Positions 2,977-42,406 of a stretch of DNA of 64,000 bases are shown here, one piece after another (within the stretch, counting starts at the first letter, position 1; each line of letters starts with the position of its first letter). The stretch lies in NCBI GenBank assembly GCA_019326865.1, contig GCA_019326865.1_4101.1; one strand, 5' to 3'. The position numbers and the translations under genes are program-made. This DNA comes from a phage. The notes under the pieces were generated by a model. It did not search any database. It was not told where the DNA came from and worked only from the letters and a program-made list of their open reading frames with translations.

Positions 2977-3291
2977 ATGAAAAACTTATTCAGTGTTCAG
3001 TACGTTCCAGGTGAAATTAGTTTATTGTATCTCTTTGACCATGATAATTCATTATTACTAGTAGTAAAGAAATGTCAAGCTAGTTCGTTTGTTGAATACA
3101 TTCACGATAATGAATATATACCTGATTTTTTAGAGTGCGATTATTACGATGATCATGAATCATTTATTTTTCAGGAATCGCTAGTATGGGACAAATCGAT
3201 TAACTTCTTTACGTTAATTGAATTACAAAAGCAAGTGAAGTATCATTGGGATTATTTAATTACACAGGATTACATTGAGATAGAAATATAA
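2977..3291 (+). CDS. hypothetical protein, FamA-like
   Basis: ATG after GAGG (track ORF began at TTG 2953); 'HESFIFQESLVWDK'. Confidence 0.55.
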   Translation: MKNLFSVQYVPGEISLLYLFDHDNSLLLVVKKCQASSFVEYIHDNEYIPDFLECDYYDDHESFIFQESLVWDKSINFFTLIELQKQVKYHWDYLITQDYIEIEI

Positions 3292-3599
3292 TGACTAAAA
3301 ATGAATTTGATTCACTTTGTACTGTTTATAATTCATTAACAGAAATACCTAACTTTATTAGTTATATTTCAGCTTTAAATCACATTATGCATAGTTTTGA
3401 ACAATCGTTTGAGGAGAAATATGCTGGAAGAAAAGTTCTATGTCATATGCCAATGTACTTAGGAGATGGTGAGCCTTACACTACAAGTACTACATGTGAA
3501 ATAAAAAAATATAATATATTATTGGGTACTATAGAATTCACAGTATCCAATGGCGGTAGTTATATGTACTTTAGAGATGGAGTGGTTGAATTATTATGA
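3291..3599 (+). CDS. hypothetical protein
   Basis: 102 aa ORF, stop-start overlap with neighbours, no recognised motif. Confidence 0.45.
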   Translation: MTKNEFDSLCTVYNSLTEIPNFISYISALNHIMHSFEQSFEEKYAGRKVLCHMPMYLGDGEPYTTSTTCEIKKYNILLGTIEFTVSNGGSYMYFRDGVVELL

Positions 3600-12752: not shown

Positions 12753-13317
12753 TTACATGACAGAACGTCATCAGATATTATATGATATCAGTACTAAAAT
12801 GTTATCAATTGTTAGTAGTGCGAAAGAAATTGAAAAACAATACCTCATCCGTGATGTAGCAATTTCATCTAAATGTTGGTCCAATGAATATTACGATCAT
12901 GGTATTCTTACTATTTCTGGGGCTAGAAATATTTGTATTGTAAAAAATAAGAAAAAATGCAATGAAGAGTGTGAGATTAGAACCGATATACAAATTAAGG
13001 ATGATGGAAGTTTTTCACACCACCCATTCCATATTAGTACTGTTGGTGTTTTATATAATATTAAAGTACTATTCGGTGATGAAGAGTATGTGTTAAAAGC
13101 TATCAATCCAGAATCAAGTACAGTTGAAGAAGAACTGTTCCAGATGAGCACGGTTATACCTGAAGAGGTTCTTAGTACTGTTATTTTTTGTAGTTTAATT
13201 TATCATGAATACAAAAAGAACCAGTTCGATTTCCACATGTTAGGAACGTACATCTTCAATAATTTGAGCGTAGATCGTTTAAAAGCATTAAATTCAGCGA
13301 TGGATAAGGTTCTATAA
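12739..13317 (+). CDS. hypothetical protein, FamA
   Basis: 192 aa; 'VEEELFQMSTVIPEEVL'. Confidence 0.6.
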   Translation: MNAYSYMTERHQILYDISTKMLSIVSSAKEIEKQYLIRDVAISSKCWSNEYYDHGILTISGARNICIVKNKKKCNEECEIRTDIQIKDDGSFSHHPFHISTVGVLYNIKVLFGDEEYVLKAINPESSTVEEELFQMSTVIPEEVLSTVIFCSLIYHEYKKNQFDFHMLGTYIFNNLSVDRLKALNSAMDKVL

Positions 13318-23123: not shown

Positions 23124-23669
23124 ATGATGGCATTTATTAAAAAAGAAAAAACTATTACTTATAAAACTTTGAATTTTGATGATTGTATTAATCAATCACA
23201 GGACGAAAATATTTTTACTGGATATGTGGTTATTAAAGAAAAAGGATGCATTTCTTATATAAAGGAATTGCAAAATGGCATTGAAGTCACTTCAGTTAAA
23301 TTACTTCCTACACAAAAACCAACAATATCAAAAGCCCAGTACGGTAATTATTTCGAGGAAAGATACAGTAATAATTTAATAAGTGTTAAAGCTCATATTG
23401 TAAAAGGAGAACTAGAAGGAGAATATAGAAAATTCAACCCACAAGGAAAATGTGTTTGGGTTAAATACTACAATTCAGGTGTTGATATAACATCTGAAAT
23501 TATAGAGTTCTTAGGGTTGTCATGTACACCTGAAACTCTTCATGACTACAAATTTAATACTGAAGAAGAGTTTAATCTGATGATGCGTTATGGATCACAT
23601 TTTAAATTTTTATATGAATATAACGTTGACAGTAGTATTTTTGATAAAATAGTACATAACTGTCTATAA
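23124..23669 (+). CDS. hypothetical protein
   Basis: 181 aa; AGGAA RBS; palindrome just upstream. Confidence 0.55.
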   Translation: MMAFIKKEKTITYKTLNFDDCINQSQDENIFTGYVVIKEKGCISYIKELQNGIEVTSVKLLPTQKPTISKAQYGNYFEERYSNNLISVKAHIVKGELEGEYRKFNPQGKCVWVKYYNSGVDITSEIIEFLGLSCTPETLHDYKFNTEEEFNLMMRYGSHFKFLYEYNVDSSIFDKIVHNCL

Positions 23670-25902: not shown

Positions 25903-25906
25903 TATA

Positions 25907-25935
25907 TAGCCCGACATAAGTTCGGGCTATTTTTG
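25907..25935 (+). terminator. rho-independent terminator
   Basis: TAGCCCGA-CATAAGT-TCGGGCTA then TTTTT. Confidence 0.75.
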
Positions 25936-25946
25936 TAAGGGGAAAT

Positions 25947-26222
25947 ATGAATTATAAATTTCTACAATATACATACACAATATTATTTGATTTACATCAC
26001 AATGGACGATATATCAACACAATACGAGAAAACACATTTACTCATATGTTATGGATTGATTACTTAGAAACGATTCGTGCATATTTTGTTAATACTGAGA
26101 TAATCATTCGTGGTAAAAAACAGAAGATTCAACATGTTAATAGTTATGGTGGTAAATTAACTCTAACATTTACCGATAATAATACTAATGAAATGTGTTG
26201 TATCGAGTTGGTGAACATATGA
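25947..26222 (+). CDS. hypothetical small protein, FamB
   Basis: 91 aa; 'KFLQYTYTILFDL' N-term and 'GGKLTLTFTDNN' C-term. Confidence 0.55.
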   Translation: MNYKFLQYTYTILFDLHHNGRYINTIRENTFTHMLWIDYLETIRAYFVNTEIIIRGKKQKIQHVNSYGGKLTLTFTDNNTNEMCCIELVNI

Positions 26223-26485
26223 ATTATAAAGATTTCCAATTAACATATAAGATTATTCGCAATCTAGCACACAGCAATAATAGCCCTAGTCTAGAAGACA
26301 CATGCACAGAAATGATCCATACGATTCGTGCAAAGATTGAAGAAAATTTCAGTACTGTTATTATTAATGATGACCATGCAGAATTTTCTGATATAATCAT
26401 TAGACGTGATGGTAAAGTTGAGGTTCAGTACTACACTGATTTTGGATTTACAAGTGTACCGTTGGAGATATTCCCTTGGGATTAA
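26195..26485 (+). CDS. hypothetical small protein, FamB
   Basis: 96 aa; 'DFQLTYKIIRNL', 'DGKVEVQYYTD'. Confidence 0.55.
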   Translation: MLYRVGEHMNYKDFQLTYKIIRNLAHSNNSPSLEDTCTEMIHTIRAKIEENFSTVIINDDHAEFSDIIIRRDGKVEVQYYTDFGFTSVPLEIFPWD

Positions 26486-26787
26486 ATTTAAATGATATAC
26501 AATTCACTTATAAGGTACTATATGATTTGTATGATGCATACCTTGTTAGTAACAAAATAGGTTCACATAACCCAACCAAAGAACAATCATTTATTGATTT
26601 ATATATTGAGTACTTAGATTCTATTGAAAACTATCTCAAAAAGAATTACAGTACTTTTATCGATGGAAATGATACATTCGATTTCTATGGTGTGCAATCA
26701 TATGATGGTATAATCCATGTTCAATTTCAGGAAAGAACCGATAGGGAATTTATCGAAATTAAAGTTGTGAAGTTGGTGAATTTATAA
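26476..26787 (+). CDS. hypothetical small protein, FamB
   Basis: TTG start after GGAG; 'DIQFTYKVLYDL'. Confidence 0.5.
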   Translation: MGLNLNDIQFTYKVLYDLYDAYLVSNKIGSHNPTKEQSFIDLYIEYLDSIENYLKKNYSTFIDGNDTFDFYGVQSYDGIIHVQFQERTDREFIEIKVVKLVNL

Positions 26788-26797
26788 GAGGTTACAT

Positions 26798-27109
26798 ATG
26801 TTATTAAATGATATACAATTTACATACAAATTTTTGTATATCCAATTCGCAACGGTTGATGCTGGTGAATATATCTACAGTGAAGTTTATCGTTCGATAT
26901 GGATAAAGTTTTTAGATGAATTACATGAATATTACCATGATTTGCGTATAGTTCGTAATAATAAAATATACAAATTCCGCGATATTGTTAGTCATAGCGG
27001 TAAGCTACGATTGGAATTAAGTACTGATAGTGATGTTGATTGGATTGGTGTAAATTTACTGGAGTTGGAGAATGAAAAGCAACTTAAAGGAAATACAAGT
27101 ATTTTATAA
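26798..27109 (+). CDS. hypothetical small protein, FamB
   Basis: 103 aa; 'DIQFTYKFLY', 'SGKLRLELSTDSD'. Confidence 0.55.
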   Translation: MLLNDIQFTYKFLYIQFATVDAGEYIYSEVYRSIWIKFLDELHEYYHDLRIVRNNKIYKFRDIVSHSGKLRLELSTDSDVDWIGVNLLELENEKQLKGNTSIL

Positions 27110-27356
27110 ATTCTTATACTTGTCATATGTTAAAGATGAGTACTATGAAAGTGTGTATTATTTTTTATGGCAACATTACCGTACTATAGTAAGAGATTTA
27201 TATCTAGGAAAATCTATCATATACAATGGTGAAAAATGTACATGTACGGATGTAGTTAGTTTTAATGGTTCTTTAACACTGTGTTTCAGATGCGATAATA
27301 ATAGTGGGTCATTTTCATTAAACGTATATCAGTTAGAAGGAATAAATTTTGAATAA
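27072..27356 (+). CDS. hypothetical small protein, FamB
   Basis: 94 aa; GGAG RBS; 'EIQVFYKFLYL', 'NGSLTLCFRCDNN'. Confidence 0.5.
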   Translation: MKSNLKEIQVFYKFLYLSYVKDEYYESVYYFLWQHYRTIVRDLYLGKSIIYNGEKCTCTDVVSFNGSLTLCFRCDNNSGSFSLNVYQLEGINFE

Positions 27357-27549
27357 GTGTCCATATTGTAACAGTACTCAATTAGCTCGTTTCCGTTTAG
27401 ATTCAGACTGGGCAACTGGTGCTGGGGATTTCTTCCCTATTAATGATGATGCGGAATACACCGAAGAACAACACAAAGATTTTGATAAATCATGGCGACC
27501 GGACATTGAGTGCATTTATTGCCTTAATTGTGAGCGTGTCCATGACTAA
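27349..27549 (+). CDS. small zinc-ribbon protein
   Basis: 66 aa; 'CPYCNS...CIYCLNC' paired CxxC. Confidence 0.5.
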   Translation: MNKCPYCNSTQLARFRLDSDWATGAGDFFPINDDAEYTEEQHKDFDKSWRPDIECIYCLNCERVHD

Positions 27550-27805
27550 AGCTGAACTAATAGTTCATACATATAAAATGATATCAAGTACTGAGTTATC
27601 ATATAGTGAAGATAATCCGGTACTGGATTATTTTGTGGAATTATTGAAAGACCATTATATTGGTAAATCACTGAATCTTAATAATATTAATTTCACTGTA
27701 AAGGATGTAGCACCAGGTAAAAACGTACTAATAGTATGTGTTACTTCATCTGATAACCCAGTATACCCAATATCAATAACTTTTGAGATATTAGGGGATG
27801 TATGA
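27542..27805 (+). CDS. hypothetical small protein, FamB/C-like
   Basis: ATG 27542 overlapping upstream stop; 'HYIGKSLNLNN'. Confidence 0.5.
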   Translation: MTKAELIVHTYKMISSTELSYSEDNPVLDYFVELLKDHYIGKSLNLNNINFTVKDVAPGKNVLIVCVTSSDNPVYPISITFEILGDV

Positions 27806-28092
27806 ATATCATTTTAATACAAAAAACATATACTCTACTAATGAAAGAATATGCTAATACTTATGATGAAAGGTGTAGTGCAATTCATAATATGTATGAA
27901 TTTATTACTCAAGAGTACAGGGATTATATATATGCTGCGTTAGTGGGTAGATATTTCAGTACTAGAAAATACCCAAAACTTCAAATAGTTGATGTTTCTT
28001 TTTATTTCAATGGTCATATTACTATTCATAGTTTAGACCAAGATTCAACAACGTACTTAAACTTTTCATTTGATGAGGTAACATTTTTATGA
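27802..28092 (+). CDS. hypothetical small protein, FamB
   Basis: 96 aa; 'IQKTYTLLMKEY', 'NGHITIHSLDQD'. Confidence 0.5.
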   Translation: MNIILIQKTYTLLMKEYANTYDERCSAIHNMYEFITQEYRDYIYAALVGRYFSTRKYPKLQIVDVSFYFNGHITIHSLDQDSTTYLNFSFDEVTFL

Positions 28093-28271
28093 GAACAGTA
28101 TTTTTTATCTGGAGTCTTTTTTCATTGGCAGTACTGACAGTTTCAGGTGCTTATTCATTTTTAACAATGAACACATGGTATGTTAATTTACTATTCCCAA
28201 TTGTTGGTGTTGGTTTAGGATTTAGTTTACATAGTGTATGTAAGGATTACAATGACAAATACAACAAATGA
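28089..28271 (+). CDS. small membrane protein
   Basis: 60 aa, two hydrophobic helices. Confidence 0.4.
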   Translation: MRTVFFIWSLFSLAVLTVSGAYSFLTMNTWYVNLLFPIVGVGLGFSLHSVCKDYNDKYNK

Positions 28272-29333: not shown

Positions 29334-29618
29334 ATGGATTTATACTCACATGCTTGGACATTCGAACAGTATATTTCATTATATAATGAAATTTACAATA
29401 CTGATATGTCATACTGCAATTATTTTCGCAATATGATCGATGAATATTCAAAGGAATTTAATAGTTTATACCTTTATGTTAATAAAGAAGTTACACATAA
29501 GACTATGAATAAAACAGGTACAATTGATGAAATTTCATTTGATTCCTATGGTGTGTATTTCTATATTACATTTTCTGATGATACTTTAGGTATACACACT
29601 TATAGTGAGTTAAAATAA
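29334..29618 (+). CDS. hypothetical small protein, FamB-like
   Basis: 94 aa; 'SYGVYFYITFSDD'; terminator downstream. Confidence 0.5.
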   Translation: MDLYSHAWTFEQYISLYNEIYNTDMSYCNYFRNMIDEYSKEFNSLYLYVNKEVTHKTMNKTGTIDEISFDSYGVYFYITFSDDTLGIHTYSELK

Positions 29619-29625
29619 AAATATA

Positions 29626-29650
29626 GGCCAGCGTTTGCTGGTCTTTTTTC
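29626..29650 (+). terminator. rho-independent terminator
   Basis: CCAGC-GTTT-GCTGG then TCTTTTTT. Confidence 0.65.
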
Positions 29651-30551: not shown

Positions 30552-31237
30552 TTAAAGATTTAGATAGAATTTTATATGTACTAAGGGGTGTAATTACATT
30601 ACATCCACACATCAATCGAATTGAAAGTACATTTCAGTTGGAGTCAAGAGAAACTCAATATTCACATATATCAAATGTAGTTGGCTCACTTAGTACTGAA
30701 GACTCGCCTTACGATATTTGTGTATGTGAAGTACAACCAAGTTCGGATCTTGGATTTGCTATTTTTGATAAAAATCAAAATCTCATTAGTATGTTTCAGT
30801 GCAATAATCCTTTTTGGAAAACATGCCTGTATCCAGAGTGGGCTATGCTTGATCCAACCAAGAGCACCATTAAAGTTTATGACTCTAAAAATGATGAAGT
30901 CGTTATTGATTTGGATGAGTCAATGTCCGAGGAAGAACACTTTCAGCTAATGATGATGCGTGCTATGCCTGAATACAATGCAATGATTAACACTGTGCAA
31001 TACATTAAGGATACCATGCCATCATTGCGTACACATGAGTTTTGTCATCCGGTATTGTATGAACATTTAGATTTAGATTTCAGTACTATTAAATTTAAAG
31101 ATAGTGTCATTGAGTATATCCAAGAGGTTACTAAATTCGATTTCATTAGTACAATGAATAATAACCCTGAAACAAATTTCAGACGACAATACAATGAATC
31201 TTTGTCTAATGGACGTGATACAAGTTGGTGGAAATAA
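30548..31237 (+). CDS. hypothetical protein, FamA-like
   Basis: 229 aa; 'SEEEHFQLMMMRAMPEY'; ATGA overlap. Confidence 0.55.
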   Translation: MIKDLDRILYVLRGVITLHPHINRIESTFQLESRETQYSHISNVVGSLSTEDSPYDICVCEVQPSSDLGFAIFDKNQNLISMFQCNNPFWKTCLYPEWAMLDPTKSTIKVYDSKNDEVVIDLDESMSEEEHFQLMMMRAMPEYNAMINTVQYIKDTMPSLRTHEFCHPVLYEHLDLDFSTIKFKDSVIEYIQEVTKFDFISTMNNNPETNFRRQYNESLSNGRDTSWWK

Positions 31238-31238
31238 T

Positions 31239-31502
31239 ATGAATATTCAAGATAGATTACAATTACTATACACTATTGAACAGGCTGCTTTTGAACTTGT
31301 TAATAAAATCTCCGAAGAACTTCCCAAAGGAACTATAGTTCGTGTACGTGAGAGGGATTATGAATCTGGAGAAATTGAAGAACTAGTACTGACCGTGAAT
31401 AAAGTAACATACTATGAATCTGAGTTGGCTATCCAATGTAGATCGGAAGATGGTAAAATATACTATTATGACACTGGTGTAGATATAGAGGTAATAAAAT
31501 GA
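31239..31502 (+). CDS. hypothetical small protein, FamC
   Basis: ATG 31239 (TAATATG junction); 'LPKGTIVRVRERD'. Confidence 0.5.
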   Translation: MNIQDRLQLLYTIEQAAFELVNKISEELPKGTIVRVRERDYESGEIEELVLTVNKVTYYESELAIQCRSEDGKIYYYDTGVDIEVIK

Positions 31503-32641
31503 CCCTTTTGCAAATATATGAAGATTTAATGCACTTGTGCAATACAAACGATGCGTTCTTTTATGTGGATCATAAAAGTCCTGCTGGTGGAACGTATCGT
31601 GTATTCAGTTATCGTCTAGCATCATATACTGATTTCATGCAACCCAATGCATTAGAAACCCGTGGATCTATGTGGGAAATTGATGAAGAAGGTAATATGA
31701 TTCGTTGTGCTGCTCGTACTATGAAAAAGTTCTTTAATGCTTACGAGAATCCTGCTACAATGTTCCCTGCTAACACCACATGCGATGACATTGCAGTAGT
31801 GATGCCTAAATTGGATGGTTCAGTGATCAGTACTTACCGTGACAATGATGGTGAGATTCGTTGTAAATCACATACTGCATTGTATTCTGACCATGCGATT
31901 AACAGTACTCGACTTATTAACGAGAACCAGAATCTATATCAGTACATCGATGAAGCTGAACGTTTAGGTTACACAGTTAATATGGAGTATACAAGCCCAG
32001 AGTACCGAATTGTATTACCGTATCAGGTAGAACAATTGTTTGTGCTGAACGTTCGTCATCGTGTAAGTGGTGAGTTGCTATGTGGTAAAGCATTACGTGA
32101 TAAGTTTCCATGTCTTTCACAGTACAGCACTAATATGACAGGAAAAGATATTCATCACACTTTTCCTGTGCGAAATTCATTCCGTGAAAGCGTTGATGAA
32201 GTTCATAAAATGCTTGACATTGAGGGTTTTGTTTGCATTTTAAAAGATGGGACAATGTGTAAAATAAAGACTGACTGGTACAGTTCATTACATCTTACAA
32301 AAGATAGTATTATTATTGATTCTCATTTATATGAAGCTGTATTAAATGGTTCAAGTGATGATTTAAAACAATTGTTCAGTTCTGACGAATATGCTATGCA
32401 AAAGATATTAAGAATGGAACAGTTGGTTTTTTCGTGCTATAATGCATTACAAGATGAAGTAGAAAGCTTCGTCAATGAACACAAGCACTTAGAGCGAAAG
32501 GAATTCGCATTGAAGGTTCAGACGTGCTTATCTAGTGAACTGAATCGTCAGGGCTTGGCATTTGCAATGTATAATAATAAGAAAGTTGATTACAAAGATA
32601 CACTTATCAAATACATGAAAATTATACTAAAAGATTTTTAG
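31499..32641 (+). CDS. rnlA: RNA ligase 1 (T4 RnlA-like)
   Basis: 380 aa; KxDG motif 'MPKLDGSVIS'; N-term 'FYVDHKSPAGGTYRVFSYRLASYTDF' parallels T4 Rnl1. Confidence 0.9.
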   Translation: MTLLQIYEDLMHLCNTNDAFFYVDHKSPAGGTYRVFSYRLASYTDFMQPNALETRGSMWEIDEEGNMIRCAARTMKKFFNAYENPATMFPANTTCDDIAVVMPKLDGSVISTYRDNDGEIRCKSHTALYSDHAINSTRLINENQNLYQYIDEAERLGYTVNMEYTSPEYRIVLPYQVEQLFVLNVRHRVSGELLCGKALRDKFPCLSQYSTNMTGKDIHHTFPVRNSFRESVDEVHKMLDIEGFVCILKDGTMCKIKTDWYSSLHLTKDSIIIDSHLYEAVLNGSSDDLKQLFSSDEYAMQKILRMEQLVFSCYNALQDEVESFVNEHKHLERKEFALKVQTCLSSELNRQGLAFAMYNNKKVDYKDTLIKYMKIILKDF

Positions 32642-32671
32642 TACTAACTAGCCTAAGCACAAGGAGAAGTG

Positions 32672-32926
32672 ATGGCTAAACCTAAGTATAAAAATGACGG
32701 TTCCCTTTCTCCAACTGAGTTCAGGAAAATACAACAAGAAATCGATGAATTACAGCACAAACGCTCAATGAAAGGTGTGAAGATAAGTAAGAAGAGAATC
32801 GAGAATACTTTCGGATGTAGTAGTACTGAATATAAGAAGAAAAGGAAACCGAAGGGTGTTAAGCCGAGAATACATGATGTAACTCGCTATACATCAAAAC
32901 GTGAAAATAAATTTGATCCACTATAA
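32672..32926 (+). CDS. small basic protein
   Basis: ATG 32672 after AAGGAG; Lys/Arg-rich 84 aa. Confidence 0.5.
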   Translation: MAKPKYKNDGSLSPTEFRKIQQEIDELQHKRSMKGVKISKKRIENTFGCSSTEYKKKRKPKGVKPRIHDVTRYTSKRENKFDPL

Positions 32927-32935
32927 GGAGTTCAT

Positions 32936-33166
32936 ATGAAAGTTGAAGTTCAGCATAGTATTGTTCAAGATATGTCTGTAGTTAAATTTCTTTCATTAAA
33001 AGATTACTTTAGATGTATCAAGTTCCTAGAAGAATCTCATTTAAAATGGACTCCATTAAAGTACAGTTCATCCAAAGACACTGCTAGTATTCGTTGTGAT
33101 GAAGCTGTACTCGTAAAAATCTCTAAAAGATTTGGGATAGGTAAAGTGAATGAGCACAGTAAATGA
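32936..33166 (+). CDS. hypothetical small protein
   Basis: 76 aa; AGGAG RBS. Confidence 0.45.
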   Translation: MKVEVQHSIVQDMSVVKFLSLKDYFRCIKFLEESHLKWTPLKYSSSKDTASIRCDEAVLVKISKRFGIGKVNEHSK

Positions 33167-33404
33167 ACTAAAATACTACAACAAAATTGCGGATACGTTT
33201 ATTACTCATTTATATGAAGAATTCAGTAGTATCCGCAAGGAATATACAGGTAAATGTATTTTATATAGTTCTTATCTTAGTGGAAGAATTGAACGTGCTT
33301 ACATTACTAAAGTGAAGTTTTCTGATGATTATCAATTACTATTTGAATTGGATGATTGTTTAGTCATTGAAGCTGATTTAATAGTAGATGTGCTGAACAA
33401 TTGA
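33150..33404 (+). CDS. hypothetical small protein, FamC
   Basis: 84 aa; 'KEYTGKCILYSS'. Confidence 0.45.
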   Translation: MSTVNELKYYNKIADTFITHLYEEFSSIRKEYTGKCILYSSYLSGRIERAYITKVKFSDDYQLLFELDDCLVIEADLIVDVLNN

Positions 33405-33410
33405 GGACAT

Positions 33411-33725
33411 ATGAATAAAGAACTTGCATATAAGGGTATCGAAAAGCTAAAGTTCGTTGAAAAGGAACTAATAGAATCAGTTGAAACAATGGTTGAAGAT
33501 TACGTTTTTGATTTTAAGAAAACATTAATTGGATGTAAAGTCAAATGCTGGGATCATACCATTAGAGAATGGTTCAGTGCTATAATTCTTGATGTTAAAG
33601 TATCTCGAACTGGTATTGGTAACTTAGTAAATGGTGAATGCTTTGTATACACTGAATACAATAACGGTACAAGACACCTTTCAAAAGGATGGCACAATCT
33701 CGAAGATGTAGAATTCATTGAGTAA
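33411..33725 (+). CDS. hypothetical small protein, FamC
   Basis: 104 aa; 'KKTLIGCKVKCWDH'. Confidence 0.5.
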   Translation: MNKELAYKGIEKLKFVEKELIESVETMVEDYVFDFKKTLIGCKVKCWDHTIREWFSAIILDVKVSRTGIGNLVNGECFVYTEYNNGTRHLSKGWHNLEDVEFIE

Positions 33726-33737
33726 CAAGGAGTAATA

Positions 33738-34670
33738 ATGCCAACTATCACCTTAACAATTGGGTTGCCTGGGTGTGGTAAAACTACATGGGCAGTGCAA
33801 GAGATTAAAAACGCCAAATCTAAGACTATCAACATCAACCGTGATGATATTCGTGAATCTATGGCGGGGTCACATGATGCTTACAAATTCAACGATGCTA
33901 ATGAGCAGTACGTAACTACTTTACAGTTCAGTGCAGCAAATTTAGCAGCAGAGAATGGTTGGAACATCATCATATCCGATACGAACCTTAAACAACATTT
34001 CCGTGATCTCTGGAAAGTATGGGCTAAAGATAATGATTATGATTACAAAGAAAAGAACTTCTATGATGATTTTGTACCTAATGAAGACCGTGGTGCAGAT
34101 GTTCATGAATTCTTTAAGATTAAAGAGTTCGTAAAACTTTGTAAGAAATATAACCGCCAGCGTGAGCGTTCAGTACAAGATAATATCATTGACACTATGG
34201 CAGATACTTACTATTATAGTAAAGCAATGCACATTGGTTACTATGGTAATTCAAGAGAAGCCGCTGTTATCGTTGATATTGACGGAACTCTTGCTCATAA
34301 ATGGGGTCGTAATCCTTACGATGAAAGTACTGTACTACAAGATACACCAGATGAAGAAGTTATTTTGTCTATTATCGCTGAAGCAGTTTTCCATAAACGT
34401 AAGATTATTGTAATGAGTGGGCGTACTGAAGGGTGTCGTGCAGACACAGAACAGTGGCTTAAGAATTGGGGTGTTCCTTACGATGCATTGTTTATGCGAG
34501 GCATCGATGATAAACGACCCGATGATGTGGTAAAATATGAGTTGTATATGAATAACGTCGTGCATCATTACGATGTTAAAAAAGTATACGATGACAGATC
34601 ACAAGTCGTATTCATGTGGCGTAAACTACTTGGATTAAAAGTGATGCAAGTTGCAGAAGGAAATTTCTGA
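33738..34670 (+). CDS. pseT: polynucleotide 5'-kinase/3'-phosphatase (T4 Pnk/PseT-like)
   Basis: 310 aa; Walker A 'GLPGCGKTT'; HAD motif 'VIVDIDGTLA'; terminator downstream. Confidence 0.9.
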   Translation: MPTITLTIGLPGCGKTTWAVQEIKNAKSKTININRDDIRESMAGSHDAYKFNDANEQYVTTLQFSAANLAAENGWNIIISDTNLKQHFRDLWKVWAKDNDYDYKEKNFYDDFVPNEDRGADVHEFFKIKEFVKLCKKYNRQRERSVQDNIIDTMADTYYYSKAMHIGYYGNSREAAVIVDIDGTLAHKWGRNPYDESTVLQDTPDEEVILSIIAEAVFHKRKIIVMSGRTEGCRADTEQWLKNWGVPYDALFMRGIDDKRPDDVVKYELYMNNVVHHYDVKKVYDDRSQVVFMWRKLLGLKVMQVAEGNF

Positions 34671-34677
34671 CACAAAA

Positions 34678-34705
34678 GGGATCAATGTATGATCCCTTTT
34701 TCTTT
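34678..34705 (+). terminator. rho-independent terminator
   Basis: GGGATC-AATGTAT-GATCCC then TTTTTCTTTT; follows pseT. Confidence 0.7.
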
Positions 34706-34719
34706 TAAGGTATATTATA

Positions 34720-34895
34720 ATGAATGTAAAAACACAGATGTTATTACAAAAAGAATACTTAGAAAATATAGAAATGTTCTATAGATTGTCTTTATACGAA
34801 AATAAACATAAAAAATATAACTTTTCTAAACAACTAACCACAAGTACTAATGATTATCTATTTTCATCAATGTTTTATGTGAGAGGTTTATTATA
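34720..34895 (+). CDS. possible small protein (58 aa)
   Basis: ORF below track cutoff; TAATG junction with next gene; weak RBS. Confidence 0.25.
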
Positions 34896-35153
34896 ATGGA
34901 TAAATTTCACACAGATATAACACAGATAGGTAATCTTATCAATAGTCTAATTACTGATTTAGAAGAAAAGTACTTAGGTCGAAATGTATACGTTGAAATG
35001 TATGAAACATATGGTGTTATTGATATGATTTATTACAGTGCATTGAAGTGTGAAATACGTTTAACAGTATGTTTGTTTGAAAAAGATACATTCAACAGAA
35101 GTACTGCAATTCGTCAGGTTGGTGTAGATGACATTGAATTATATGAGGAATAA
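34896..35153 (+). CDS. hypothetical small protein, FamC
   Basis: 85 aa; 'EEKYLGRNVYVEMYE'. Confidence 0.5.
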   Translation: MDKFHTDITQIGNLINSLITDLEEKYLGRNVYVEMYETYGVIDMIYYSALKCEIRLTVCLFEKDTFNRSTAIRQVGVDDIELYEE

Positions 35154-35407
35154 TGATGTTTGAACAGGACGTAGAGCTATTCAAAAGACATATTGAATAT
35201 TTGACTGTTTTAGAGAATGATTTAACCACAAAATACAAAGGAATTAGAGTCCAGTGTTGGTATGATGACTGGGATTATAAAAGGGAACTTACTATTGACC
35301 GAATTTATTTCAGTGATGGTGTACTGAATGTACATGGTGTAAATGATTTTGGTCATTCATATACATATTCTAATAATGCTAAATTTAAAAGGATCTGCAA
35401 TGAATGA
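35153..35407 (+). CDS. hypothetical small protein, FamC
   Basis: 84 aa; 'TTKYKGIRVQCWYD'. Confidence 0.5.
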   Translation: MMFEQDVELFKRHIEYLTVLENDLTTKYKGIRVQCWYDDWDYKRELTIDRIYFSDGVLNVHGVNDFGHSYTYSNNAKFKRICNE

Positions 35408-35702
35408 ATATTATCATAATTTATTCGATTACATAAAACTAATAGATGATCTTTCTTTTGAATTTCTCAGTACTGAAAAAGTTGATGAACCTCTCTATTA
35501 TGATTGTATTAGTTCACTGTGTTTAGATGAAAAAGAGATATTAGCAAATAACTTACCATCCACGGTCTGTGTAATCAATGGTTCCAAGGCTGTGGTGTCT
35601 GAGGTTAATTTTCATAAATCACTTAATACAATTGTTTACAAGTTCGATAACACTTGGTTTAATCACGTAACTAGTAATATTAAATCTGTGAGATTTTTAT
35701 GA
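35400..35702 (+). CDS. hypothetical protein
   Basis: ATG 35400 after AAGGA; 100 aa. Confidence 0.45.
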   Translation: MNEYYHNLFDYIKLIDDLSFEFLSTEKVDEPLYYDCISSLCLDEKEILANNLPSTVCVINGSKAVVSEVNFHKSLNTIVYKFDNTWFNHVTSNIKSVRFL

Positions 35703-35995
35703 ATATAAAAAAATTATTTGAACAAGTAAATTTATTGTACTGGTGTTCAGACGGCTCAGATAAGGAATATAGTGAAGTTTATTTAGAACTATTTAGAACT
35801 GAAATACATCTAATTCGAAGATACCTAATTGATAACAAAACTGAAGTAAAAGTTAGATACCATAATGGTACTTTAAAGAATGGTATAATTATTGGATTGA
35901 TAGTTACACGAATGTCCAGTAATATTAAAGTTGCAGTAAGATTAATGACTGATGATGGTGTCTACACAATAGAAGCTAATGAGATTATATATTAA
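35699..35995 (+). CDS. hypothetical small protein, FamC
   Basis: 98 aa; 'RRYLIDNKTEVKVRYHNGT'; ATGA overlap. Confidence 0.5.
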   Translation: MNIKKLFEQVNLLYWCSDGSDKEYSEVYLELFRTEIHLIRRYLIDNKTEVKVRYHNGTLKNGIIIGLIVTRMSSNIKVAVRLMTDDGVYTIEANEIIY

Positions 35996-36301
35996 ATGGA
36001 TATACAAACATTCAATAAACTAAAGTACTATGATAATGGTTTTGTATTAATAATTAACGAACTTGATAGTATACCATACGAATATCATAATCAAGTAATG
36101 AATATAGTAAAAAATATATGTGAAGAACTAAAAAGTATATTTAAAAATGAATATGTTTATGATTTAGGTAATAATAGAACAAAACTATACATAAAGAAAT
36201 TCTGGGGAACACATTGTGGTTTGATGGTCGATTTGGGTTTAAGTTTAGACAATAATTTCGAATCATGTTCATTATATTTGGACGAAATGAGAATCTCATG
36301 A
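35996..36301 (+). CDS. hypothetical protein
   Basis: 101 aa ORF. Confidence 0.5.
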   Translation: MDIQTFNKLKYYDNGFVLIINELDSIPYEYHNQVMNIVKNICEELKSIFKNEYVYDLGNNRTKLYIKKFWGTHCGLMVDLGLSLDNNFESCSLYLDEMRIS

Positions 36302-36318
36302 GACATAAGGACATTCGG

Positions 36319-36327
36319 TGATATAAT
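36319..36327 (+). promoter_or_regulatory. extended -10 element TGATATAAT
   Basis: 32 nt upstream of CDS 36359; no clear -35. Confidence 0.35.
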
Positions 36328-36358
36328 TTGATTATATCATTAATAAGGAGAGGTTGAA

Positions 36359-36685
36359 GTGAATGGGTCGTTTTTAGAAATACTAGAAAAGACAACTGGG
36401 ATGCTTTCAAGTTCACTAATGCACATTTTCAGTACTAGTAATTTTTACGATTCGCGTGTGTTAGATGTAATTTGTAATAGCTATGTTGAATGTGTGTCTA
36501 ATACAATATGTCCATTTAACGCTTATTCAAATGATGGTGTTGAAAAGTTTATTATATCCAAGATTCAATGTGGTTTTGGTGATTGGATAGTTCTATGTGA
36601 ACGTAGTGGTGTGTCTTTATACATCGAAGAAATTGGAAAATTTATATACAAAGGAGTAGAATATGTTAGTCCCAATTATTATTAG
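36359..36685 (+). CDS. hypothetical protein
   Basis: GTG start after AAGGAGAGG; 108 aa. Confidence 0.5.
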   Translation: MNGSFLEILEKTTGMLSSSLMHIFSTSNFYDSRVLDVICNSYVECVSNTICPFNAYSNDGVEKFIISKIQCGFGDWIVLCERSGVSLYIEEIGKFIYKGVEYVSPNYY

Positions 36686-37310
36686 TAGTGCATATGTCAT
36701 CGGTATTATTATTTCTGGTATGCTTGCATATAACTATAACAGAAGTATTCTAGGTTATGCAGTACTTGGTGCAGTTCTAAGTCCAGTAATTGCAATTGGT
36801 GTTCTTATCATCTTAGGTGAGAAAAACACAAAATATTTTATTACTGAAGAACTTGATAAAATCACTCCAGCACCGGAGACGGTTATTCCAGAAGTTGAAG
36901 AAGAAGTAAAAGAAGTTGAAGTTCAAATGCAAGTTAAAGTACATAATACACTCGAAGAAACTGATCCTAAAGTTGTGGTGAATGTAGTTCCTGTCGTTGA
37001 AGATGTAAAACCAAAAGCCCAAAGATCCAAAAAAACCACTAAAACACAGAAAAATACTAAAACTGCAAAAAAATCACGTAACACTAAAGGTAAGAATAAA
37101 GGGAAATCGACGGATGAACAACAACTAGGTGTTCATAACCATACTGCACAAATTACATCGGCAGCGGCAGCGGGGGCAATCGTAACATCACCAATCTACA
37201 ACAATGATGATTACAGTGATTATAGTCGTCACAGTAGTTCCCCTTCTGATTCTTGTTCTTATGATAGTTCTAGCTCTGATTCAAGTTCATCTTCTGGAAG
37301 TTGTGATTAA
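36663..37310 (+). CDS. membrane protein with low-complexity Lys/Glu and Ser/Asp-rich tail
   Basis: two N-terminal hydrophobic helices; KKTTKTQKNTKTAKK stretch; C-term 'SSSDSSSSSGSCD'. Confidence 0.6.
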   Translation: MLVPIIISSAYVIGIIISGMLAYNYNRSILGYAVLGAVLSPVIAIGVLIILGEKNTKYFITEELDKITPAPETVIPEVEEEVKEVEVQMQVKVHNTLEETDPKVVVNVVPVVEDVKPKAQRSKKTTKTQKNTKTAKKSRNTKGKNKGKSTDEQQLGVHNHTAQITSAAAAGAIVTSPIYNNDDYSDYSRHSSSPSDSCSYDSSSSDSSSSSGSCD

Positions 37311-37639
37311 TGTCAATGAAACCACTAATTCAACATAATATTTTTTATAGTTCATTATTCAAAATACAAGATGATTTTTATCAGACGTTGAGTAATGATC
37401 TTATAGGTAAAACTGTACGATATTCGGACCAATACATCAAACGTATGACAAGTCAGTATATTGACCCTGAATACGAATACGACATTGAACACATTAATCC
37501 CAATACTAGAATGAAAATCATTGAGATATTTAAGAATGGGAGAACTATAGGTGCTGAAATTGAGTACTTGAATTGTGATTGTTATATAGATACAGAGTTG
37601 AGTTTGGATTATCTTGTTTTAGTGGATGATGAGGAATAA
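37310..37639 (+). CDS. hypothetical small protein, FamC
   Basis: 109 aa; 'NDLIGKTVRYSD'. Confidence 0.5.
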   Translation: MSMKPLIQHNIFYSSLFKIQDDFYQTLSNDLIGKTVRYSDQYIKRMTSQYIDPEYEYDIEHINPNTRMKIIEIFKNGRTIGAEIEYLNCDCYIDTELSLDYLVLVDDEE

Positions 37640-37641
37640 TT

Positions 37642-37857
37642 ATGATAACATTTTTCGCAATATATGGATTTGTGGTATTTGTCACATTTATAACCAACTT
37701 TTTAGTACTTAATTGGGGTTGTTTTAAAGATGAAATCATGATTGCCATGAATCTCCAAACAGCCGCACTAATGGCTATTATTTGGCCTGTAACGTTAGTA
37801 TACCTTTTTATTTCACTTACTCAAGATATTATTAACAAATATAAGAGAAAGAACTAA
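37642..37857 (+). CDS. small membrane protein
   Basis: 71 aa, two hydrophobic helices. Confidence 0.45.
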   Translation: MITFFAIYGFVVFVTFITNFLVLNWGCFKDEIMIAMNLQTAALMAIIWPVTLVYLFISLTQDIINKYKRKN

Positions 37858-38114
37858 TGTTCAAAACCGACTTATCACATTTTCGATATCTTAGGTCTTT
37901 GGCTGATGATTTTATAAATGATCTTAAGCCAAAATATATTGGTCAAGAAGTACGATTAATAAACTCCAGAGGGTATGGAAAGTATATTATATCGGATATG
38001 TATATTAGTGCAGGTGAGTGGCGTTTTAAAATTAACACTTATCTTAAAGATGGTTCTTTTGCTGGAACACAAGTTACTAAACATACTAATATTATATGGT
38101 TGGAGCAACAATGA
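37857..38114 (+). CDS. hypothetical small protein, FamC
   Basis: 85 aa; 'KPKYIGQEVRLIN'. Confidence 0.5.
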   Translation: MFKTDLSHFRYLRSLADDFINDLKPKYIGQEVRLINSRGYGKYIISDMYISAGEWRFKINTYLKDGSFAGTQVTKHTNIIWLEQQ

Positions 38115-38854
38115 AACACTTTTTAGAAGTAACCGTGCCTGATGATAAAGATTTATATATTGTAGGTGATTTGCATGGTAATGGTAAACTATGGGATGCT
38201 ACAGTAAAAGAATTTGGTATTACACACAATGATTATGTTTTCAGTGTAGGTGATGTTATCGACCGTGGAGAACAAAATTCAAAGCTCCTATTTGAATTTT
38301 TGTTCGGAGAAAATCGTTACATGATTGCTGGAAATCATGAGATGATGTGTGTTGATTCAGAAACACTTCGAGATTGGTATCATTGTTGGATAAGTAATGG
38401 CGGTGATAAATTCCTTGATGAAGTTGGGGGAACAGGCATTCAATTCTTTCGTCAGTACTTGAAAGATTTACCTATGATTATCCAAATCAACCATAGAGGC
38501 TTGAAGATCGGGTTAGTTCATGCTGGAGTTCCTTTGGAATATACAACATGGGAACGATTTGTTAATGGGACAAAATCACTTAGTGCTGATATAGTTGATA
38601 AGTGCTTGTGGGATAGGAAAACATTCGATTATTGTAGAACAAATAATACCTATTATGCACCTAAGTTAGATGGTGTGCATTGTGTCTTTAGTGGACATAC
38701 TGCCGTTACTGATCCACTCATTTATGGTAATCGCATTTGGATTGATAGTCAGTTCTTGACGGGTGACTTAACTCTCGCTACTCCACAAAGTGGTGGGATG
38801 AGATACTTACGTAAAGAAAAAGATGAGTACTCATTCAGTCGTTTCAAAAGGTAA
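38111..38854 (+). CDS. PPP-family Ser/Thr protein phosphatase-like metallophosphoesterase
   Basis: 'GDLHGN', 'GDVIDRG', 'GNHE' signature; ATG 38111 after GGAG. Confidence 0.8.
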   Translation: MKHFLEVTVPDDKDLYIVGDLHGNGKLWDATVKEFGITHNDYVFSVGDVIDRGEQNSKLLFEFLFGENRYMIAGNHEMMCVDSETLRDWYHCWISNGGDKFLDEVGGTGIQFFRQYLKDLPMIIQINHRGLKIGLVHAGVPLEYTTWERFVNGTKSLSADIVDKCLWDRKTFDYCRTNNTYYAPKLDGVHCVFSGHTAVTDPLIYGNRIWIDSQFLTGDLTLATPQSGGMRYLRKEKDEYSFSRFKR

Positions 38855-38859
38855 TAATT

Positions 38860-39129
38860 ATGCATGATGTAGTTAAAAAATATTTGAATGATAGATATAT
38901 CATGGAAAAATCTATTAATTCTATCCTAAAAGATCATGATAATCAAATACGTGAGATTCTATCAAATAAACTTATTGGTTGTTCAGTTGAGTTCAACTAC
39001 AAAAAGAATGTAGTGAAGATTGGAGTTATTAAACGTGTAGTTGCTGTTTATGTCCAAAATGTATATGTTGAAATTGAATATGATGGTAAATTATCACAAT
39101 TAAGTACTGAAGATTTAACATTTTTATAA
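38860..39129 (+). CDS. hypothetical small protein, FamC
   Basis: 89 aa; 'NKLIGCSVEFNYKK'. Confidence 0.5.
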   Translation: MHDVVKKYLNDRYIMEKSINSILKDHDNQIREILSNKLIGCSVEFNYKKNVVKIGVIKRVVAVYVQNVYVEIEYDGKLSQLSTEDLTFL

Positions 39130-39139
39130 GGAAATAGAA

Positions 39140-39367
39140 ATGAAAGTAATTCAAGTTATGGTAGAAAAATACCAAACTGAAGATGGTCGTATTTTTGATT
39201 CAGCTAAACAAGCTGAACATCATGAACGTATTATTTCGGGTACACGTAAAGTGTGTCCTACATGTAATGGAACACAACAAGTGCCGTCAGAAGATTACCG
39301 CAGCTTTTATGCTTGTCCATACTGTGATGGGAAAGGCTATGTAGAAAAACAAGAGGTATGGAAATGA
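39140..39367 (+). CDS. small zinc-finger protein (DnaJ-type CxxCxGxG repeats)
   Basis: 'CPTCNGTQ' and 'CPYCDGKG'. Confidence 0.5.
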   Translation: MKVIQVMVEKYQTEDGRIFDSAKQAEHHERIISGTRKVCPTCNGTQQVPSEDYRSFYACPYCDGKGYVEKQEVWK

Positions 39368-39777
39368 AATTGTATTGCTTAACTAATATGTACTGTCAAG
39401 GTGTCCAAGCTGGTATTCAAGCATTTCATGCTGGTGTTAAACTAATCAAAGAATATGAAGGTACTGCTTTCAGTACTATGATTGATGAATGGTATAATGA
39501 GCACGAAACTATTGTAGTACTAAATGCGGGTGGACATGATAAATTAAATTCTTATTATAAAGACCTTAACAAACAGGGAACAGTTCCGTTTGCCAAATTC
39601 AATGAAGCTGGATTGAATGATGCTATTACATGTATCGCAGTACTGTGTACATCTGAAATGATTGAAGACATGGCTGTTATGCGTATGAATCTTCCTGCTG
39701 GTGATCAGCTAATGCAAGTGAAATATGGTGCATTGTTTGACACACTTAAAGCAATCAGTACGATGAGGACAATTTGA
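39358..39777 (+). CDS. hypothetical protein
   Basis: 139 aa ORF. Confidence 0.5.
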   Translation: MEMKLYCLTNMYCQGVQAGIQAFHAGVKLIKEYEGTAFSTMIDEWYNEHETIVVLNAGGHDKLNSYYKDLNKQGTVPFAKFNEAGLNDAITCIAVLCTSEMIEDMAVMRMNLPAGDQLMQVKYGALFDTLKAISTMRTI

Positions 39778-40987: not shown

Positions 40988-42406
40988 ATGAGCATTTTAG
41001 CAATTCTTGAAAGCATTAAAAATACTAGCAGTACTCTGGGTAAAAAAGCTATCCTTGAACAAAACAAAGATAACCAAACATTACAAAAAGTACTGAAATA
41101 TACACTAGATCCTTCAATTGTAAGTGGGTATAAAAAGCTACCACAAGCTGATGATGTATACCAACATATGACATTAGATGAAGCAATTGATAAGCTAGAA
41201 TGCATTTACAAACGTGGTGTAACCGGAAATGCTGGACGTGACTTCATTGCTTCAGTACTGGGTTCTGTATCTGAAGATGATCAGGAAGTTCTACGAAGAA
41301 TGCTCACTAAGAACCTTGATTGTGGTATTCAAGAAAAGAACTGCAATGATGTGTTCGGGAAAGGTTTTATCAAAGACGAACCATACATGCGTTGTTCTTT
41401 GATTGACAAAAAGACTGCAAAGAACATTAACTTCAAAGATTATGGTTATGCTATATCAGAAGTGAAAATGGATGGTCAGTACTTGAACCACGTTGTCATT
41501 AATGGTTCATTAACTTCTACATCCCGTAATGGTAAACTATACGACTTCCTGGGTTGTCGTGATGGTGAGATGGCAGGTCTTGCTCACATCATCCAAAGTA
41601 AAGATGAACGTTTTAGTAGTGGTGTAGTCTTTATGGGTGAAGGTGTAGTACTGGACAATGATGGAGAAACCATTCTCCCACGCACTACTGGCAATGGTAT
41701 AATTCAGAAAGCTGGAAAAGATAGTATCAGTCAGAATGAAGCAATGCGTACTGTATTTGTTCTATGGGATGTTGTTCCATATGATGCATTTTGTGAAGGT
41801 GTATGGGATGTAAAACGTAAAGAACGTCGCGAGATCTTAGTAGATGCAATTAACGAACTCAGTAGTGATTTTGTTCGTATGGTTGGATTCCGTAAAGTTC
41901 TAAACATCAAAGAAGCATTTGAGTACAATAGTGAACTAATGAACGAAGGTGAAGAGGGTTCAGTACTGAAATGTGAAGATGGTATCTGGAAATCTCACAC
42001 TTCTCCTAAGCAATTGAAAATGAAACTCAAAATGCAACTGGACTTGCGTATTGTTGGTTTCAATGAAGGTGAAGGTAAGCGTAAAGGTAGCCTTGGTTCT
42101 TTACAACTGGAAAGTGCGTGTGGTACATTGAAAGTTAATGTAGGTACAGGTATCCGTGAAAAAGATGCCGAATGGACATTTAAAACTATCTGGGAAAGAA
42201 TGCAAGAACTTATTGGTAAAGTGGTTACAGTTGAGTGTAATGACATTGTATTCGATAAGCGTACTGGTGAACCATCACTATTTTTACCTGTATTTATTGA
42301 ATTTAGATTTGACAAAAACACTTGCGACGATTATACTCGTATCTTAGAAATTCGTGATAGTGCAGTTGAAGTGTTTTCAAACAGTATTATTGAAGCATTA
42401 GGTTAA
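40988..42406 (+). CDS. lig: ATP-dependent DNA ligase (T4 gp30-like)
   Basis: 472 aa; KxDG adenylation motif 'EVKMDGQY'; N-term 'GKKAILEQNKDNQTLQKV' parallels T4 ligase. Confidence 0.9.
   Translation: MSILAILESIKNTSSTLGKKAILEQNKDNQTLQKVLKYTLDPSIVSGYKKLPQADDVYQHMTLDEAIDKLECIYKRGVTGNAGRDFIASVLGSVSEDDQEVLRRMLTKNLDCGIQEKNCNDVFGKGFIKDEPYMRCSLIDKKTAKNINFKDYGYAISEVKMDGQYLNHVVINGSLTSTSRNGKLYDFLGCRDGEMAGLAHIIQSKDERFSSGVVFMGEGVVLDNDGETILPRTTGNGIIQKAGKDSISQNEAMRTVFVLWDVVPYDAFCEGVWDVKRKERREILVDAINELSSDFVRMVGFRKVLNIKEAFEYNSELMNEGEEGSVLKCEDGIWKSHTSPKQLKMKLKMQLDLRIVGFNEGEGKRKGSLGSLQLESACGTLKVNVGTGIREKDAEWTFKTIWERMQELIGKVVTVECNDIVFDKRTGEPSLFLPVFIEFRFDKNTCDDYTRILEIRDSAVEVFSNSIIEALG

Follow-up and report, generated by a model that had tools for sequence, protein, structure and literature searches.

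A genus-specific family of small proteins with a predicted helix-plus-barrel fold, interleaved with RNA-repair genes in Asteriusvirus jumbo phages

The stretch of DNA analysed here (64,000 nucleotides, hereafter the window) belongs to an Asteriusvirus jumbo coliphage with 98% identity to UE-S1 and ~92% identity to 121Q/PBECO4. Three conserved enzyme genes, each confirmed by Pfam, anchor the region of interest:

31499..32641, plus strand: rnlA, T4 Rnl1-type RNA ligase (Pfam RNA_lig_T4_1 and T4_Rnl1_C)
33738..34670, plus strand: pseT, polynucleotide kinase/3'-phosphatase (Pfam HAD_PNKP and AAA_33)
38096..38854, plus strand: calcineurin-like (PPP-type) phosphoesterase (Pfam Metallophos)

A preliminary description had proposed that about ten small ORFs at 31239-39129, interleaved with these genes, share a K-Y-x-G-x-x-V signature and form a family (FamC). 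The interleaving is real, and all six of the motif strings quoted are found in plus-strand ORFs at the positions given. The number holds for the window as a whole, where there are ten members, but not for that range, which contains eight. The members and one more distant relative are as follows:

33411..33725, plus strand: firm FamC member, 104 aa, KKTLIGCKV; quoted string KKTLIGCKVKCW
34896..35153, plus strand: firm FamC member, 85 aa, EEKYLGRNV; quoted string EEKYLGRNVYVE
35153..35407, plus strand: firm FamC member, 84 aa, TTKYKGIRV; quoted string TTKYKGIRVQCW
37310..37639, plus strand: firm FamC member, 109 aa, NDLIGKTV, with a longer insert between strands
37857..38114, plus strand: firm FamC member and the one modelled, 85 aa, KPKYIGQEV, basic (pI 9.3); quoted string KPKYIGQEVRLIN
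33150..33404, plus strand: supported FamC member, 84 aa, KEYTGKCI; quoted string KEYTGKCILYSS
38860..39129, plus strand: supported to marginal FamC member, 89 aa, NKLIGCSV, basic; quoted string NKLIGCSVEFNY
31239..31502, plus strand: marginal FamC member, 87 aa, ELPKGTIVRV
3291..3599, plus strand: FamC member outside the range first described, 102 aa, EEKYAGRKV
29334..29618, plus strand: probable FamC member, also outside that range, 94 aa
35996..36301, plus strand: divergent relative, joined by a transitive link only, 101 aa

Pairwise identities within FamC are 15-30%, and 34896-37857 is the only FamC pair that blastp finds at E<1e-3 (E=6e-4). Blastp within the window is therefore too insensitive for this question, and profile comparison was used instead. 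This confirms FamC, at the level of sequence, as a real paralogous family whose similarity goes beyond chance. When 50 ortholog-group profiles from the neighbourhood at 24.7-39.4 kb, together with the syntenic singletons of that stretch, were compared all against all with hhalign, 40 real pairs had P<1e-3 compared with none among decoys, which were reversed sequences of the same composition (best decoy P=1.4e-3). The alignments span up to 66-84 columns and so extend beyond the motif alone. The preliminary description had staked the family on profile similarity among the ORFs, and these 40 pairs supply it. A family HMM built with one ortholog group left out recovers 33411, 35153, 37310 and 37857 at E 1e-4 to 1e-8, and iterated searches converge on the ten members in the window. 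Across the whole genome of EC22.5-2 there are exactly 10 HMM matches at E<1e-3, nine of them within ~10 kb, and the first decoy appears at 0.41. A post hoc regular expression for the motif gives 10 matches where 0.9 are expected, nine of them at residues 25-43 of proteins of 84-109 aa, although there is some circularity here, the pattern having been taken from the members themselves.

Database classification is consistent with this result. Window members match PHROGs 37322, 29519, 33398, 31355, 29135, 38615, 28139 and 11429 over their full length (E 1e-32 to 1e-74). These entries are the same proteins as the FamC members, and all are labelled 'unknown function'. In PHROGs they stand as eight families with no relation to one another; here they are joined into one. 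In agreement with a single family, phrog_11429 and phrog_29519 cross-match other FamC members (E 0.008-0.07); phrog_11429, the group of 3291, is also weakly matched by 35153. The PHROG search with 33150 gave no match.

Support differs from member to member. 33411 has leave-out E values of 4e-5 to 2e-8 and aligns with 37857 (P=2.8e-5) and 35153 (P=8e-5). 35153 (leave-out E=8e-5) and 37310 (3e-5 to 4e-6) also align with 37857, at P=4.8e-5 and P=1.5e-5, respectively. The leave-out score of 34896 is weak (0.04), and its hhalign P is 5.5e-6 to 35153 and 6.3e-5 to 37857. For 33150 the leave-out E is 0.03 and that of its A4 orthologue (RAKYINKRV) is 4.4e-5. 38860 aligns with 37310 (P=2.4e-4) and 33411 (P=6e-4); its leave-out E is 0.11 for the window sequence and 0.63 and 0.004 for the orthologues in A4 and JNE01, respectively. 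The marginal member 31239 aligns with 35153 at P=1.4e-3 over 81 columns and has a leave-out E of 0.08, the best decoy being at 0.16. Outside the cluster, 3291 is detected at E=2e-6 by an HMM built without it, and 29334 has E=1e-3 (3e-5 for its A4 orthologue) and aligns with 37857 at P=9e-4. Scored directly against the FamC HMM, 35996 is non-significant. Its link runs through the JNE01 ORF L003_18260 (RDKYYGKPI), with which it aligns at P=3.9e-6 over 93 columns and which itself matches the FamC HMM at 6.5e-5. Three other ORFs (35400, 35699 and 36401) were not recruited, scoring at decoy level (E>0.1) in the iterated searches.

What kind of protein is this? The AF2 model of 37857 has one N-terminal helix followed by a five-stranded, strongly bent antiparallel barrel of the SH3-like type (Tudor/KOW-like); the predicted fold rests on this one modelled member, with pLDDT ~50 in three of the five AF2 models. 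Each copy would thus comprise an amphipathic helix of ~22 residues and then the barrel. The recurring signature is accounted for in the model as the junction of the fold, with Tyr as the helix end, the invariant Gly as a cap and Val/Ile at the start of strand 1. This would make it structural, and neither a catalytic nor a ligand-binding motif. Across the paralogs Gly29 is the sole invariant residue, and the motif Tyr/Leu is semi-conserved. The Tudor/chromo/PWWP/KOW group has the SH3-like barrel in common with the model. However, those are domains of larger proteins, whereas FamC proteins are free-standing, with 84-109 aa and a long N-terminal helix. A Pfam search with the ten proteins at E<=1 matched no model of that group, KOW included, and the barrel has no aromatic set conserved across paralogs of the kind that forms the cage of the royal family (readers of methylated Lys/Arg), nor is any other surface of it conserved across them. 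Sequence searches of Pfam, PHROGs and the PDB pointed to no informative family; with the family profile the PDB gave nothing below E=0.27. Foldseek against viral predicted structures gave no match at E<=1e-3.

The family appears to be confined to one genus. Protein searches found 24 matches in 5.8 billion proteins and 10 in 1.84 billion representatives, all on Asteriusvirus-type contigs; no relative from elsewhere was among the representatives. By tblastn only 36 records were found, all Asteriusvirus. The sister genus Eneladusvirus keeps the rnlA-pseT-phosphatase order with no detectable FamC members. A candidate from fHe-Yen9-04, of the sister genus, was rejected (best match E=0.025 versus decoy 0.18). 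FamC is undescribed in the UE-S1 paper, the jumbo-phage comparative survey and the phAPEC6 structural paper (PMC7247149). Like the variable small-ORF regions of T4-like phages and other jumbo-phage expansions, it consists of many same-strand unknowns between conserved enzymes, with fast turnover in a single lineage, and a published parallel is the ~35-copy zinc-ribbon expansion of Bacillus phage G (PMC7824862). It differs from other lineage-specific expansions in its stable copy number (9-10) and in the orthologous positions of the copies throughout the genus; the duplications are therefore old and not recent.

The sequences nevertheless diverge quickly. Most members are 30-55% identical to their counterparts in A4 and JNE01, compared with 74-88% for the three anchor enzymes. 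FamC dN/dS is 0.02-0.54 versus 0.04-0.15 for most flanking large genes, which suggests that selection is purifying but relaxed. With dN/dS below 1 no positive selection is seen, although these pairwise averages could miss individual sites. Alleles are shuffled between phages, and TH47 carries a natural in-frame chimera in which the 34896 helix is fused to the 35153 barrel, with the junction just before the motif. A plausible history is that old tandem duplications gave rise to the copies in a variable stretch of small plus-strand genes, strung between the conserved anchors rnlA, pseT, PPP phosphatase, PTH2 and DNA ligase. Positions would then have been kept throughout the genus while the sequences changed several times faster than the enzymes, with alleles exchanged between phages and adjacent copies recombining into in-frame chimeras.

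A further aspect is the relationship to a neighbouring family (FamB), which the preliminary description had suggested on the basis of HYIGKSLNL, a string that is indeed present in the ORF named:

25947..27356, plus strand: FamB core of five tandem ORFs, with two helices and a barrel of the same kind; may belong to one superfamily with FamC
27542..27805, plus strand: bridging ORF (HYIGKSLNL) between FamB and FamC; aligned by hhalign with the FamB core (P=3.9e-4) and with 37857 (P=4.3e-4)

Here the outcome is divided. The model of FamB 27072 (pLDDT 90) has two helices and a barrel of the FamC kind, with a Y-x-G-[KQ]-x-[VI] helix-to-strand junction equivalent to that of FamC. In sequence the linkage is borderline: the bridges (27542, 29334 and JNE01 ORFs) have P values of 3e-4 to 1e-3, just below that of the best decoy (1.4e-3). 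Comparison of the two superprofiles gave P=0.12, the same as a reversed decoy, and direct sequence proof of a FamB-FamC superfamily is therefore rejected. The models thus support kinship at the level of fold only, and the earlier interpretation as a whole is partly supported.

As it stands, FamC is an ordinary case of small proteins that have expanded in a single lineage, within a variable early-gene region. The best explanation as a whole, to which we give a probability of roughly 0.55, is an Asteriusvirus-specific expansion of a helix-plus-barrel design with a structural signature, yielding diversified binders. Judging by fold class and evolutionary pattern, these are most likely intracellular binder proteins that have diversified in an early-gene region where change is fast. 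In phAPEC6 the orthologues of the FamC region are gp361c-gp377c. The mass-spectrometry table of its virion proteins passes from gp347 to gp549 with no entry in between (PMC7247149), and these orthologues are thus absent from the virion proteome. Eight of the ten members are acidic (pI 4.4-5.5), which is not distinctive because the window median is 5.3. The proteins would be non-virion, mostly acidic and intracellular, the variable barrel surface would be the binding module, and each paralog might have a separate host or phage target in takeover or counter-defence. Adjacency to the RNA-repair genes would then reflect a common early-gene region and not a common pathway.

A broader version unites FamB, FamC and the 35996 group into one superfamily of ~20 genus-specific helix-plus-Tudor-like-barrel proteins, a toolkit diversified against different host proteins. 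Its targets would include, for example, RNA polymerase (by mimicry of the CarD/Mfd/UvrD Tudor domains) and host defence components, and new specificities would arise when neighbouring copies recombine, as they have in the TH47 chimera. This broader version is rather doubtful. It is also unlikely that the FamC proteins are RNA-polymerase-binding modulators that mimic the Tudor-like domains of CarD, Mfd RID and the UvrD/PcrA C-terminus and redirect host transcription. The barrel of the model is of the Tudor-like type. Identity to the CarD/CdnL N-terminus, Mfd RID and UvrD/PcrA C-terminus is 4-19%, and these domains are not among the top matches of the FamC model. Pfam CarD_TRCF_RID gave no match, and no CarD_CdnL_TRCF RNAP-interaction domain was found.

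Quite unlikely is a role as nucleic-acid-binding accessories of RNA repair, with KOW-, Sm- or Hfq-like barrels holding tRNA or RNA ends for RnlA and PseT. Sm and Hfq proteins have an N-terminal helix and then five strands in an SH3-like barrel, which is the order of elements in FamC. However, the Sm1/Sm2 motifs (Pfam LSM or Hfq) that mark these ring-forming proteins were not found for FamC. The interleaving as such does not establish a functional link to RNA repair.

It is very unlikely that FamC is unreal, the short motif recurring through chance or convergence among small AT-rich ORFs with no more than an alpha-then-beta layout in common. The low identities, the single blastp pair, the placing of every member in a different PHROG family and the noise-level FamB superprofile comparison are all what this would predict. 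For the FamC core it is already largely refuted by the 40 real pairs below a P that no decoy reaches, alignments far longer than the motif, leave-out recovery down to E=1e-8, independent detection of 3291 and a natural chimera joined in register. That the ORFs are decaying or non-coding filler is scarcely credible: restriction to one genus, annotation as hypothetical proteins throughout and presence/absence polymorphism of 33150 (missing from PBECO4, Turkey3 and TH47) would fit, but dN/dS falls well short of 1 in almost every comparison, all eight genomes compared have the ORFs intact and in conserved positions, and the AF2 models are confident.

In Asteriusvirus jumbo phages ~83% of genes are annotated as unknown (the phAPEC6 figure, PMC7247149). 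That fraction shrinks when at least ten 'hypothetical proteins', split over eight PHROGs, become one family with a predicted fold, and the small, soluble FamC proteins are a tractable set with which to screen for interactions. Should they turn out to be diversified binders of host proteins, new inhibitors could come from this compact source, and the TH47 chimera would exemplify how phages make new ones. As to transcription signals, a promoter scan was uninformative, with 97 sites where 93 are expected, and only terminator-like hairpins stand out, at 25906, 29625 and 34674.

Plain pairwise comparison is nearly blind to FamC, the set of small proteins grouped by a K-Y-x-G-x-x-V signature. All six motif strings quoted in the preliminary description, as well as the string HYIGKSLNL of the neighbouring family FamB, do occur in the ORFs named for them (ORFs are designated by start coordinate). 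Among the candidates, blastp gives a single significant match, 34896 against 37857 (E=6e-4). PHROGs assigns each candidate to its own separate family of unknown function, and a Pfam search of the candidate small ORFs gives no match. Therefore, ortholog-group profiles were built from eight Asteriusvirus genomes. Two of them, A4 and JNE01, are divergent, with only 30-55% identity to the window in most of these small ORFs. In an all-against-all hhalign comparison of 50 profiles, with reversed sequences as decoys, 40 real pairs fell below P=1e-3 and none of the decoys did (best decoy P=1.4e-3). The profile similarity on which the proposed family depended is thus significant. At P<1e-4 there is a single cluster (33411, 34896, 35153, 37310 and 37857), to which 38860 is added at P=2.4e-4. 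A family HMM was tested with left-out ortholog groups (best decoys E 0.05-1), and its iterated search converged on ten window members. FamC is a genus-restricted paralogous family, counting seven firm or supported members at minimum and eleven at most. The ORFs, all on the + strand, fare as follows:

33411, 35153, 37310, 37857: recovered when left out, E 1e-4 to 1e-8
33150: left-out E=4e-5 via the A4 orthologue, 0.03 for the window sequence
34896: left-out E=0.04
31239: left-out E=0.08
38860: left-out E=0.11 (window sequence), 0.63 (A4 orthologue), 0.004 (JNE01 orthologue)
3291-3599, outside the originally described range: EEKYAGRKV, clear member, family HMM E=2e-6
29334-29618, outside that range: probable member by the family HMM

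ORF 35996 is linked only via the JNE01 paralog L003_18260 (hhalign P=3.9e-6), which itself matches the family HMM at E=6.5e-5. Three other candidates, 35400, 35699 and 36401, were rejected, with scores that remain at decoy level.

The window comes from a jumbo coliphage of the genus Asteriusvirus. Over positions 31000-39500 it shares 98.3% identity with Escherichia phage UE-S1 and ~92% with 121Q, PBECO4 and relatives. For the ORFs of the described region, the UE-S1 annotation reads 'hypothetical protein', except for three enzymes. It also reduces the 37857 orthologue, an intact 258-nt ORF at 12858-13115 of the UE-S1 locus, to a 117-nt CDS (UES1_405), and leaves out the orthologue of the FamB ORF 27072 (2082-2366). 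Recognizable genes nearby are:

31499-32641, + strand: T4 Rnl1-type RNA ligase, rnlA (Pfam)
33738-34670, + strand: PNKP/PseT, polynucleotide kinase/3'-phosphatase, pseT (Pfam)
38096-38854, + strand: calcineurin-like phosphoesterase (Pfam)
39358-39777: PTH2 peptidyl-tRNA hydrolase, directly after the phosphatase block (Pfam PTH2 E=4e-6)
40988-42406: ORF matching the annotated DNA ligase of UE-S1

ORF 23124-23669 is a weak paralog of the hydrolase ORF (blastp E=1.2e-4). Strong terminator-like hairpins with T-runs occur on the + strand at 25906-25930, 29625-29644 and 34674-34700; 12 sites of this sort were found against 4.0 expected. They split the small-ORF region into FamB plus 29334, 29663 to pseT, and 34720 onward, which suggests three transcription units. 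A promoter scan was uninformative.

FamC proteins are predicted to consist of a helix followed by an SH3-like barrel. In the model of 37857, the helix runs up to Lys26 and Tyr27, its C-cap is occupied by Gly29 (the sole invariant residue besides Met1), and strand 1 consists of Glu31 to Leu34 (E-V-R-L). The K-Y-x-G signature, as modelled, is the fold junction, a structural role that would explain why it is kept at 15-30% overall identity.

Pairwise dN/dS in FamC is 0.02-0.54 (typically 0.1-0.4), against mostly 0.04-0.15 for the flanking large genes. These ORFs are therefore real genes under purifying selection. That selection is relaxed, alleles are exchanged and copies recombine. The 29334 allele is 92% identical to Turkey3 and 40% to 121Q, that of 33411 shares 89% identity with 121Q and JNE01 and ~35% with PBECO4 and Turkey3, and 33150 is missing in PBECO4, Turkey3 and TH47. 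In TH47 an 86-aa ORF (L004 13130-13390; window 34896-35407) matches 34896 exactly over residues 1-23, and the remainder is 85% identical to 35153. At the DNA level ~235 bp are gone (window ~34969-35203), with the junction immediately before K-Y-x-G. This looks like an in-register product of unequal recombination between tandem paralogs, although the TH47 record is flagged UNVERIFIED and an assembly artefact is possible. If genuine, it is independent evidence of FamC homology and makes helix and barrel interchangeable modules.

A relationship with FamB (five tandem core ORFs, 25947-27356) had also been raised. Common ancestry is probable but unproven. The two families merge into one component only at hhalign P between 3e-4 and 1e-3, via three bridges: 27542 (P ~4e-4 toward each), 29334, and the JNE01 ORFs L003_11370 and L003_18260. 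A superprofile comparison gives noise (P=0.12). A superfamily of ~20 Tudor-like host-targeting adaptors diversifying by recombination is unlikely.

In the complete genome of EC22.5-2 (352 kb, six frames), exactly ten ORFs score at family-HMM E<1e-3 (first decoy 0.41). Nine cluster within ~10 kb at the rnlA, pseT and phosphatase genes; the tenth is ~27 kb upstream of the closest of these nine. In public protein collections, a word-indexed search (5.8 billion proteins) returned 24 matches and an exhaustive profile search (1.84 billion representatives) 10, all Asteriusvirus-type. Matches by tblastn with the concatenated small ORFs are confined to 36 Asteriusvirus records. Yersinia phage fHe-Yen9-04, of the sister genus Eneladusvirus, keeps the order rnlA, small ORFs, pseT, small ORFs, phosphatase, hydrolase, ligase, and the family HMM finds no significant member there (best E=0.025, KQYVGRTLNL; decoy 0.18). 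Thus the expansion is genus-specific. The orthologous positions and the uniform count of 9-10 copies also mark it as old within the genus. The E=0.025 ORF (L018 15675-15929, 84 aa) has a setting like that of 37857, beside the phosphatase and a small membrane ORF, and may be a lone distant relative. No description of FamC was found in the UE-S1, jumbo-phage survey or phAPEC6 literature. The fold is already known, as are lineage-specific small-protein expansions in variable regions of large phages. What is new is FamC as a sequence family, so far split across eight PHROGs.

The virion proteome of phAPEC6 lists nothing between gp347 and gp549 (PMC7247149), the stretch that holds the FamC orthologues gp361c-gp377c, so these proteins are not components of the particle. 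Within infected cells they would work as diversified binding modules that each have a separate target. We infer this because proteins of this fold class overwhelmingly serve in macromolecular recognition and because there is no conserved surface or catalytic residue. Fast, mosaic evolution in a variable small-gene stretch also fits, as does the location, since the adjoining genes are early or middle in T4. Other explanations are weaker. A role as RNA-repair accessory proteins is disfavoured, as most members are acidic (eight of ten at pI 4.4-5.5, window median 5.3; the exceptions are 37857 at 9.3 and 38860 at 7.8), KOW or Sm signatures are absent and the family is missing at the syntenic sister-genus locus. 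Mimicry of RNAP has generic fold matches in its favour and nothing else. For the core, the decoy controls and dN/dS rule out chance and junk.

Better candidates for RNA-repair accessory proteins are two basic small ORFs between rnlA and pseT, 32669-32926 (pI 10.2) and 32936-33166 (pI 9.4). They are far more conserved than FamC (~88-100% identity across the genus, dN/dS 0.03-0.14) and have clear orthologues in fHe-Yen9-04 (L018 11320-11556 and 11789-12013). The product of ORF 39140-39367 is small and Cys-rich, carries a DnaJ CXXCXGXG/Anti-TRAP-like zinc finger, and shares a CxxC segment with 27349-27549 (66 aa; hhalign P=1.5e-5 over 9 columns only). Small membrane proteins are predicted within the FamB block (28089-28271) and the FamC block (37642-37857); their C-termini are alike (hhalign P=1.9e-4), and L018 14649-14849 is similar. 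ORF 36663-37310 (215 aa), without a Pfam match, combines a membrane segment at the N-terminus with a Lys-rich middle and a low-complexity tail rich in Ser and Asp, and differs in sequence and length among phages. Finally, the ORFs at 669-2975, which are 147-162 aa long, are strong paralogs of one another (blastp down to 3e-56) and presumably represent the 'FamA' of the preliminary description. Weaker blastp links extend to further ORFs (~120-190 aa) as far as roughly 13 kb, and ORFs of similar size continue to ~19 kb. A separate related trio lies at 28-303, 300-659 and 6092-6454.
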